From Escherichia coli (GTDB lineage: Bacteria; Pseudomonadota; Gammaproteobacteria; Enterobacterales; Enterobacteriaceae): DNA of 64,000 nt. This document shows, piece after piece, positions 29,675-30,080 of the stretch. The notes below the pieces were generated by a model. The model had not been told where the DNA came from, did not search any database, and saw nothing but the letters and a program-made list of their open reading frames with translations. Each line of letters begins with the position of its first letter. Position 1 is the first letter of the stretch. The DNA is taken from the NCBI GenBank assembly GCA_031701365.1, contig GCA_031701365.1_4118.1. One strand, written 5' to 3'. The position numbers and the translations under genes were made by a program.

Positions 29675-29767
29675 ATGCAAATGAATCCGATGATTGTTGT
29701 GTTAGCTGTACTTATGATCATTCATGCCATCGTAGAAGTACTAACACAATCAGGAGTAATACAATGA
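29675..29767 (+). CDS. putative small hydrophobic (transmembrane) peptide
   Basis: 30 aa MQMNPMIVVLAVLMIIHAIVEVLTQSGVIQ; SD AAGGAG. Confidence 0.45.
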   Translation: MQMNPMIVVLAVLMIIHAIVEVLTQSGVIQ

Positions 29768-29934
29768 TCCAGGTAGAATTATCAGTACTGAAAGATCTGT
29801 TTTATCGGTTAGGCACTACTGGCGAATACCCTAAAGGGGATACTGCTAAACTATACATTGCATTGGATGTATGGCAACGTAATGAACTGGCTAACGCCTG
29901 GCGTAAAGGTAAATCAGAGGGGATTGCAGCATGA
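29764..29934 (+). CDS. hypothetical small protein
   Basis: 56 aa; ATGA overlap with upstream stop. Confidence 0.4.
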   Translation: MIQVELSVLKDLFYRLGTTGEYPKGDTAKLYIALDVWQRNELANAWRKGKSEGIAA

Positions 29935-30080
29935 AAGAATTTTTATTCGAAGTAGTGTTTCAAGGTGTCGGTAGTAACCAACTGATACGTTCAAGTGGTT
30001 ACAATGTTAACCAGGCATGGAATAACATTAAACAAATGTACCCGAACGCTATCACATATCGCAACCCAAAACAAGTTTAA
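29931..30080 (+). CDS. hypothetical small protein
   Basis: 49 aa; ATGA overlap with upstream stop. Confidence 0.4.
   Translation: MKEFLFEVVFQGVGSNQLIRSSGYNVNQAWNNIKQMYPNAITYRNPKQV

Follow-up and report, generated by a model that had tools for sequence, protein, structure and literature searches.

Two micro-gene operons in the terminal repeat of an Asteriusvirus jumbo phage encode conserved small proteins, including two predicted single-pass membrane peptides

Described small membrane proteins and the two micro-gene operons

Bacterial small inner-membrane regulators of the AcrZ, MgtS, KdpF, PmrR and SgrT class are proteins of 29–49 amino acids (aa) with a single hydrophobic helix that dock onto a larger membrane protein; such regulatory proteins were reportedly reviewed by Garai and Blanc-Potard in 2020 (cited in PMC11323111). 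Among phages, the superinfection-exclusion proteins Imm and Sp of T4 and gp15 of HK97 are small, early-expressed proteins of the inner membrane whose action on membrane machinery leaves the host alive. In T5, the pre-early genes are small and clustered within a long direct terminal repeat; the host RNA polymerase transcribes them from strong promoters as soon as the DNA has entered. Here, we analysed a 64,000-nucleotide (nt) stretch of GenBank assembly GCA_031701365.1 (hereafter the window), in which two clusters of very small open reading frames (ORFs), ORF1–ORF3 and ORF4–ORF5, are located. Substitution patterns among related phages identify all five micro-ORFs as real, conserved protein-coding genes under purifying selection. 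ORF1 and ORF4 encode hydrophobic peptides of approximately 30 aa that are predicted to span the inner membrane once.

ORF1 and ORF4 have the same size and architecture as the AcrZ/MgtS/KdpF class. The likeness is one of size and architecture only, and, unlike members of that class, both are phage-encoded and lie in presumptive early operons of a terminal repeat. Type I toxins such as TisB, IbsC, ShoB and Hok are also short hydrophobic single-helix peptides, but ORF1 and ORF4 have no antisense RNA gene or family match, carry strong, unregulated, presumably early signals and are coupled polycistronically to soluble proteins. In the curated annotation of phage Muenster, the terminal-repeat genes gp029 (42 aa) and gp036 (35 aa) are listed as '1 TMD membrane protein'. 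They share with ORF1 and ORF4 a Rak2-like terminal repeat, an early small-gene block and the size class, and their transmembrane segment is C-terminal, as in ORF4, but they have no detectable sequence similarity to ORF1 or ORF4. The superinfection-exclusion proteins are larger than ORF1 and ORF4 (~80–100 aa or more, often with two transmembrane segments) and are not homologous to them. T5 belongs to a separate phage lineage with no shared genes identified with the window phage, and the layout of the block is alike; to our knowledge, two-step DNA transfer of the T5 type is not described for Asteriusvirus.

Around the micro-ORFs, the window showed 93–98% identity to Escherichia jumbo phages of the genus Asteriusvirus. 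Over the micro-ORF region, 121Q and phAPEC6 were the closest relatives (~98%), while PBECO4-type genomes were ~88% identical. Rak2/Asteriusvirus jumbo phages are phage-therapy candidates, and for more than 80% of their genes no function is known. Small hydrophobic early phage proteins are a well-known, abundant class, and no concept is changed by the present results. Small phage proteins, membrane proteins included, are very numerous (PMC11323111). What is new is the coding proof for five ORFs, a universal and mostly unannotated ORF4, an accessory ORF1 with a cross-genus homologue, the operon anatomy and a sub-threshold link of ORF1 to the family NF033695. The existence of the ORFs, their protein-level selection, operon anatomy, phyletic distribution and hydrophobicity were observed directly.

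The two clusters form the distal ends of compact operons, each of which consists of a promoter, a 5' hairpin, a lead gene, a hydrophobic micro-ORF, one or more soluble micro-proteins and a strong terminator. The features are as follows.

Operon A
29368–29395, + strand: promoter, TTGACA-16 nt-TATAAT, 12/12 against the sigma-70 consensus
29408–29427, + strand: 5' hairpin GGGGAGAAATGATTCTCCCC at the transcript start, −13.9 kcal/mol, z = −3.1
29445–29657, + strand: lead gene, 70 aa, phrog_13428, function unknown
29675–29767, + strand: ORF1, 30 aa, predicted single-pass membrane micro-protein, 121Q gp298, accessory
29764–29934, + strand: ORF2, 56 aa, soluble helical-hairpin protein, 121Q gp299, phrog_10572
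29931–30080, + strand: ORF3, 49 aa, soluble beta-beta-alpha-beta protein, 121Q gp300, phrog_37188
30092–30119, + strand: intrinsic terminator, 12-bp hairpin after an A-tract, −19.5 kcal/mol, z = −6.2

Operon B
25591–25618, + strand: promoter, TTGCAA-16 nt-TATAAT, 10/12
25631–25650, + strand: 5' hairpin, sequence identical to that of operon A, −13.8 kcal/mol
25669–25821, + strand: lead gene, 50 aa, phrog_7119, mostly annotated in relatives as 153 nt
25818–25907, + strand: ORF4, 29 aa, predicted tail-anchored single-pass membrane micro-protein
25908–26042, + strand: ORF5, 44 aa, Lys/Ala-rich basic protein, net charge +11, phrog_29913
26049–26076, + strand: intrinsic terminator, homologous hairpin, −16.5 kcal/mol, z = −6.0

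The true start of the operon B lead gene is 25669 and not the upstream ATG at 25639, because the latter falls in the hairpin loop. The two terminator hairpins differ by compensatory base-pair changes, and the homologous element is annotated as a terminator in the G17 and Muenster records. ORF1 has the Shine-Dalgarno (SD) sequence AAGGAG at 29661–29666, 8 nt before its ATG. The ORFs of operon A are joined by ATGA overlaps at 29764–29767 and 29931–29934, and the ribosome-binding site AGGAG of ORF2 falls within the last codons of ORF1. For ORF4 no separate SD is present; its start overlaps the lead-gene stop through a further ATGA (25818–25821). ORF5 abuts the end of ORF4 without a spacer and is preceded by GGTGAT. 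These junctions imply translational coupling throughout both operons.

A first-pass annotation of the window had placed three micro-ORFs and a second pair, the latter with a basic 44-aa product, at the coordinates listed above, and sequence and ORF listing agreed with it, as they did for the SD and the ATGA junctions. Its statement that the ORFs had been missed holds for an ORF track with a 60-aa cutoff and not for public records, since ORF1–ORF3 are annotated in 121Q as the hypothetical proteins gp298–gp300; the ELP-22 and Turkey5 records also list ORF1. ORF4 is annotated in WPEC3 and in 0/6 other relatives: 121Q, PBECO4, Turkey5, A4 and UE-S1 show a gap at this position, and the TH47 record has no annotation at all.

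The genome termini of fEgEco12 were confirmed by restriction digests (PMC13070987). Positions 20,000–22,000 of fEgEco12 aligned to window positions 35,103–37,100, and the direct terminal repeat (~21 kb) would therefore correspond roughly to window positions 15,900–36,100. By this homology, both micro-ORF clusters would lie inside the terminal repeat, ~13.8 kb (operon A) and 9.9 kb (operon B) from the left physical end. The same genes are annotated within 'Direct Terminal Repeats 1..21525' in the vB_Ec-M-J record. The terminal-repeat part of the window carries small + strand genes, and 10 perfect TTGACA-N16/17-TATAAT promoters were found in the window, all on the + strand and all between 19.7 and 34.3 kb. 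In the Rak2-like phage CBB, RpoD-type promoters before short hypothetical genes, reaching into the terminal repeat, were read as an early host-takeover region (PMC5259590). The promoter and terminal-repeat signals thus point to early expression of the micro-ORF genes, in line with the first-pass placement of the cluster in a phage early region, and the early status is presumptive. Such a block may be among the first DNA to enter the cell and probably holds host-takeover functions.

Protein-level selection and phyletic distribution

The operon A slot was aligned across ten genomes in four divergence tiers, and Nei-Gojobori statistics were calculated in the annotated frame and in both shifted frames. 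In the annotated frame, the ratio of nonsynonymous to synonymous substitution rates (dN/dS) was 0.06–0.13 for the 70-aa lead gene, 0.12–0.21 for the core of ORF1 (codons 1–25, without the part that overlaps the SD of ORF2), 0.05–0.27 for ORF2 and 0–0.19 for ORF3. For ORF5 of operon B, the in-frame ratio of nonsynonymous to synonymous proportions (pN/pS) was ~0.1–0.4. The shifted-frame controls were mostly near or above 1 (~0.7–8). The exceptions were frame +1 of ORF1 (0.2–0.4), where numerous stop codons preclude an ORF, and frame +2 of ORF2 in the comparison of the window with Turkey5 (0.30), which came from 4 substitutions only. ORF4 showed 12 variable columns, split 4/1/7 over the codon positions, and was intact at exactly 29 codons in 8/8 aligned genomes. 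Its pS exceeded pN in frame by 1.5- to 12-fold (at least 3-fold in 6/7 comparisons) and did not do so in the shifted frames. ORF4 was also found by tblastn at full length and with 86–100% identity in 36/36 Asteriusvirus records. Because of the in-frame selection statistics and the full-length conservation of ORF4, chance ORFs are excluded for four of the five micro-ORFs and are very unlikely for ORF4.

ORF1 was present in 22/36 Asteriusvirus records and absent from 14/36, with blastn and tblastn in agreement, and no relocated copy was found elsewhere in the 14 genomes that lack it. fEgEco12 is a natural ORF1-minus genome. The slot occurs in three states. ORF1 stands directly behind the 70-aa gene in the window, 121Q, PBECO4 and ELP-22 (state a); a promoter-plus-hairpin cassette is followed by a diverged 29-aa ORF1, MHMNPFIVVIAIMMAVQAVLEYLSKAGVI, in Turkey5 and A4 (state b); and the cassette stands without ORF1 in all four ORF1-lacking genomes that were aligned, namely TH47, vB_Ec-M-J, UE-S1 and CMSTMSU (state c). 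The peptides of states a and b were ~50% identical, and their alignment scored 9–14 standard deviations above composition-matched shuffles at near-saturated synonymous sites (pS ~0.7). In Turkey5 and A4, the length, start and hydrophobic profile of the diverged ORF1 are retained, as is its close link to ORF2; the two ORFs are joined by ATGA in the window and are adjacent or 3 nt apart elsewhere.

The cassette resembles a movable unit that joins the 70-aa gene cleanly at its stop codon (window 29658–29674 compared with loci L005–L009). The possibility that ORF1 and ORF2 are one split gene was rejected, as the longer 'ORF2' annotations (276 nt in UE-S1; 77 aa in P0005) read through the promoter/hairpin cassette. 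In UE-S1, the extended ORF2 homologue occupies positions 803–1078 of the extracted locus. The 'UNVERIFIED' record of CMSTMSU contains several frameshifting indels in the genes of the operon A slot.

An unannotated 27-aa ORF, MY[IM]PIIIPLAVLLIAAVICE[HQ]YHLLGM, was found in the Klebsiella phages Muenster, RaK2 and OU509535 (Alcyoneusvirus). It occupies the same slot immediately upstream of the ORF2 homologue and has a homologous stop/SD junction (...GATTAATCGGGAGTAC.G.TAATG); in Muenster it lies at positions 1014–1097 of the extracted locus (L018). Against ORF1, its alignment gave z ~3.4, and 21–34 of 5000 shuffles reached the score. The sequence match alone is modest, and, taken together with the synteny, the 27-aa ORF is regarded as homologous to ORF1. 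ORF2 homologues also occur in GAP32, CBB, Yersinia phage fHe-Yen9-04 and EJP2, where there is no space for an ORF1. The comparison identifies ORF1 as an old, dispensable companion of ORF2, the two having been together since before the split of Asteriusvirus and Alcyoneusvirus. Of the two ~30-aa predicted membrane peptides under selection, one is thus universal and mostly unannotated and the other accessory and cross-genus, and the annotations of RaK2, Muenster, PBECO4, A4 and others can be corrected.

The three remaining micro-ORFs encode soluble proteins, each with a full-length match to a PHROG family of unknown function (ORF2, phrog_10572, 3e-28; ORF3, phrog_37188, 4e-40; ORF5, phrog_29913, 2e-32). 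ORF2 was modelled by AlphaFold2 (AF2) as a two-helix hairpin with moderate confidence (predicted local distance difference test, pLDDT, 68). Jumbo phages of Klebsiella, Cronobacter, Pectobacterium, Yersinia, Erwinia and Serratia encode homologues of ORF2, which map to the terminal repeat in the records with annotated termini (Muenster, CBB). ORF3 was modelled as a beta-beta-alpha-beta fold (pLDDT 93.6); the fold searches, in which a T7 Gp2-like RNA polymerase inhibitor was considered, returned generic beta-beta-alpha-beta matches only. In NCBIfam, ORF5 gave a weak match, below threshold, to the family of the class IId bacteriocin aureocin A53 (E = 0.003; 17 bits, cutoff 27). The match is probably compositional, and a nucleic-acid-binding role seems at least as likely as a relation to bacteriocins.

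Membrane character and proposed function of ORF1 and ORF4

The peptides encoded by ORF1 and ORF4 are MQMNPMIVVLAVLMIIHAIVEVLTQSGVIQ (30 aa) and MRSLAYYSSALVGALIAALLVTYLFFMVI (29 aa), respectively. Both are at most 50 codons long with one hydrophobic segment that could span the bilayer (~19 residues). The Kyte-Doolittle 19-residue maximum (KD19) was 2.65 for ORF1 (residues 6–24) and 2.69 for ORF4 (residues 11–29). Both rank in the top ~2% of the window's 376 short ATG-ORFs, and no other ORF of that rank lies in a + strand intergenic gap. The hydrophobic, single-pass character proposed in the first-pass annotation is supported for ORF1 and ORF4; ORF2, ORF3 and ORF5 are soluble and not hydrophobic. 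The summed Hessa free energy of insertion was −0.3 kcal/mol for ORF1 and −3.4 kcal/mol for ORF4. ORF1 has a conserved Pro5 and a polar pair (H or Q at 17, and E21) inside the helix. ORF4 is basic at its N-terminus (R or K at position 2), and its last residues are still part of the hydrophobic segment, a pattern that suggests tail anchoring with the N-terminus in the cytoplasm. It also carries invariant small residues with i, i+4 spacing (S9/A10, G13/A14, A17/A18 and T22/A22), and this stripe is a signature typical of helix–helix packing. ORF1 and ORF4 were rejected as paralogues (alignment z ~0).

Family searches gave few leads. ORF1 had no match in PHROG and ORF4 had weak partial matches only, and sequence searches of Pfam, PADLOC and PDB with the five proteins returned nothing meaningful. 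None of the five matched a toxin, holin or defence family in NCBIfam, Pfam, PHROGs or PADLOC, and no curated type I toxin family (Hok, Ldr, Ibs, Sho, TisB and others) was matched in NCBIfam or Pfam at E-values up to 10. An exhaustive HMMER search with ORF1 against 1.84 billion representatives found the phage's own cluster only, and a scan of IMG/VR with the 70-aa lead protein found only 121Q itself. ORF1 and its 52%-identical Turkey5 variant, however, both matched NCBIfam NF033695 ('trnsprt_adja_30', KPN_01571 family, a 30-position model), with alignments that start at the conserved 'MNP' at profile position 1. The scores of 17.4 bits (E = 0.0026) for ORF1 and 19.7 bits (E = 0.0005) for the Turkey5 variant were below the curated cutoff of 35, and the Klebsiella-phage variant of ORF1 did not match. 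As 0/10 composition-matched shuffles of ORF1 matched anything, the signal may depend on residue order, although the E-values are only 1e-3 to 1e-4 and those of a single-protein search. The link to NF033695 is thus a sub-threshold lead and not membership, and no papers on KPN_01571 or NF033695 turned up in a literature search.

The explanation that we favour, and hold to be somewhat probable as a whole, is that the micro-genes belong to early terminal-repeat operons and that ORF1 and ORF4 are membrane-inserted modulators. The host sigma-70 RNA polymerase would transcribe two short polycistronic early operons from the ~21-kb terminal repeat, each with a strong promoter and a 5' stem-loop followed by a lead gene of 50–70 aa. 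Translation would be coupled, through ATGA or TAAATG junctions, from the lead gene into the ~30-aa hydrophobic peptide and would continue into one or two small soluble proteins, up to the strong intrinsic terminator. Soon after infection, ORF1 and ORF4 would each place one transmembrane helix in the inner membrane, where their most likely mode of action would be to bind a larger host or phage membrane protein within the bilayer and modulate it. Early transcription, membrane insertion, topology and partner binding are the inferred parts of this explanation. Acting like the small membrane regulators of bacteria, the peptides could in this way contribute to host takeover, to superinfection exclusion or to counter-defence, with ORF4 as a genus core gene and ORF1 as a dispensable accessory gene. 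ORF1 and ORF4 would then be compact, tractable candidates for membrane-level host manipulation.

Several points weigh against this explanation. The coding evidence for ORF4 consists of few substitutions (the 12 variable columns), and the ribosome-binding site of ORF2 extends over the last 4–5 codons of ORF1, where conservation is therefore not at the protein level. Since ORF1 is missing from 14/36 relatives, its role is not required for growth on laboratory hosts. The insertion energy of ORF1 is borderline (−1.3 to +2.2 kcal/mol across variants) and the peptide has almost no flanking positive charge, with no K or R residue in it, and for these reasons its stable membrane insertion is not assured. 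Literature searches found no expression, localisation or phenotype data for these genes in any Asteriusvirus. Finally, sequence alone cannot tell a modulator from a pore or toxin at 30 aa, because both classes look alike at that length.

ORF1 and/or ORF4 may alternatively be membrane-damaging peptides, pore-forming or depolarising and type I toxin- or holin-like, that arrest host growth early, in line with the membrane-targeting effectors suggested in the first-pass annotation. We consider this unlikely, if worth keeping in mind. Their length and hydrophobicity (KD19 ~2.7) resemble those of the TisB, Ibs, ShoB and Hok class, but the family searches described above gave no curated toxin or holin match. 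The small-residue stripe of ORF4 also resembles the glycine-zipper motifs of channel-forming helices; on the other side, the charged tail that marks holins and Hok-like toxins is missing from ORF1, and ORF4 ends in its hydrophobic segment. The strong early expression signals of both ORFs agree with this reading, but the genes are far from any lysis cassette and their neighbours are small early genes under sigma-70 consensus promoters, and a jumbo phage would presumably need an energised host throughout the infection cycle. A type I toxin-antitoxin architecture was rejected. The sole − strand promoter-like site (29877–29850, 10/12) is not conserved, its −10 hexamer being destroyed in PBECO4-type genomes even though these carry ORF1, the cluster has no − strand terminator, and there is no antisense RNA architecture. 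We favour a modulator over a membrane-damaging toxin because of the lack of type I toxin architecture and of toxin or holin matches, the strong early signals in a phage that would rely on an energised host, and the helix-packing motif of ORF4; none of these points is decisive.

A more specific form of the modulator reading starts from the NF033695 lead. ORF1 might be a phage relative or mimic of this 30-residue enterobacterial 'transporter-adjacent' micro-protein, docking, within minutes of infection, onto an inner-membrane transporter or onto an anti-phage system embedded in the membrane, so as to block it or turn it to the phage's use. We regard this as a long shot. If true, the presence of ORF1 in 22/36 records and the swap of the promoter cassette would reflect host-specific counter-defence or exclusion, and ORF2 would be the conserved soluble partner.

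Very improbable is the view that ORF1 is a functionless translated leader that feeds ribosomes to ORF2 by translational coupling. The position of the ORF2 AGGAG inside the last ORF1 codons and the tight joining of the two ORFs agree with it, as does the arrangement of ORF2 behind a separate promoter, hairpin and SD in those ORF1-lacking genomes that were examined. However, the dN/dS of the ORF1 core stays low once the overlapping codons are left out, and Pro5, Ile7, Ala11 and the hydrophobic register are kept across lineages with saturated synonymous sites. Turkey5 and A4 also keep ORF1 despite a promoter directly upstream of ORF1. That the micro-ORFs, and ORF4 especially, are untranslated chance frames in AT-rich spacer DNA is scarcely credible: ORF4 lacks an SD of its own, is mostly unannotated and offers few informative substitutions, and hydrophobic ORFs are common in T-rich frames (21% of the short ORFs in the window have KD19 of at least 1.5), but ORF4 is open at exactly 29 codons in all 36 records, its substitutions are skewed to third positions and conservative residues, it is fitted without a spacer between the upstream stop and the start of ORF5, and the selection signals of ORF1, ORF2, ORF3 and ORF5 are clear.

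Genome ends and repeated elements of the presumptive early block

By homology to fEgEco12, the left physical genome end lies at ~15,904 in the window and the inner boundary of the terminal repeat at ~36,100. The window is continuous across the left genome end, and the source assembly is therefore permuted or circularised. Genes lie on the − strand at 1–12 kb and then on the + strand, with the switch across an ORF-poor stretch at 12–16 kb. No tRNA genes were found anywhere in the window, and no Rfam family was matched when the entire window was scanned at gathering thresholds.

The 20-nt hairpin GGGGAGAAATGATTCTCCCC was found in 5 + strand copies in the window (21304, 23721, 25631, 26664 and 29408), while 0 were expected by chance. 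The three copies that were checked against the promoter scan (25631, 26664 and 29408) lie 12 nt past a sigma-70-type −10 box. The hairpin would form the 5' end of early transcripts and may be an mRNA-stabilising or regulatory stem-loop. Its opposite strand yields the recurrent junk peptide 'GRIISPLHV'.

A repeated intergenic module occurs at 26049–26140, 30092–30178 and 32685–32777 of the window and also at ~1285–1375 of the Muenster locus. The 5' arm of its terminator hairpin carries TTGACT exactly 17 nt upstream of TATTAT, so that the terminator and a promoter-like site overlap. Approximately 25 nt downstream of the terminator, the module contains a strongly conserved segment, GCCCACAGGGTGC..A.GTGTATCTAT, whose conservation extends across genera. 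This segment gives rise to spurious ORFs ('AHRVxKCIY'), one of which is annotated in Muenster as the TTG-start gene gp034. No covarying RNA structure and no Rfam match were found for it, and the segment may act as a promoter element or bind a protein.

More + strand micro-ORFs, 44–48 aa long and non-hydrophobic, were found in gaps of the early block at 27288–27431, 27920–28066 and 30404–30538. The one at 27920–28066 is probably 121Q gp293, because it has the same 147-nt length and lies immediately upstream of the zinc-finger gene. The terminal repeat also encodes two 107-aa paralogues (window 24063–24386 and 30626–30949; 37% identity, E = 3e-27), which share RWTDS[YH]GNTYHSC[HY]VS and a C-terminal DVKRKKD motif.

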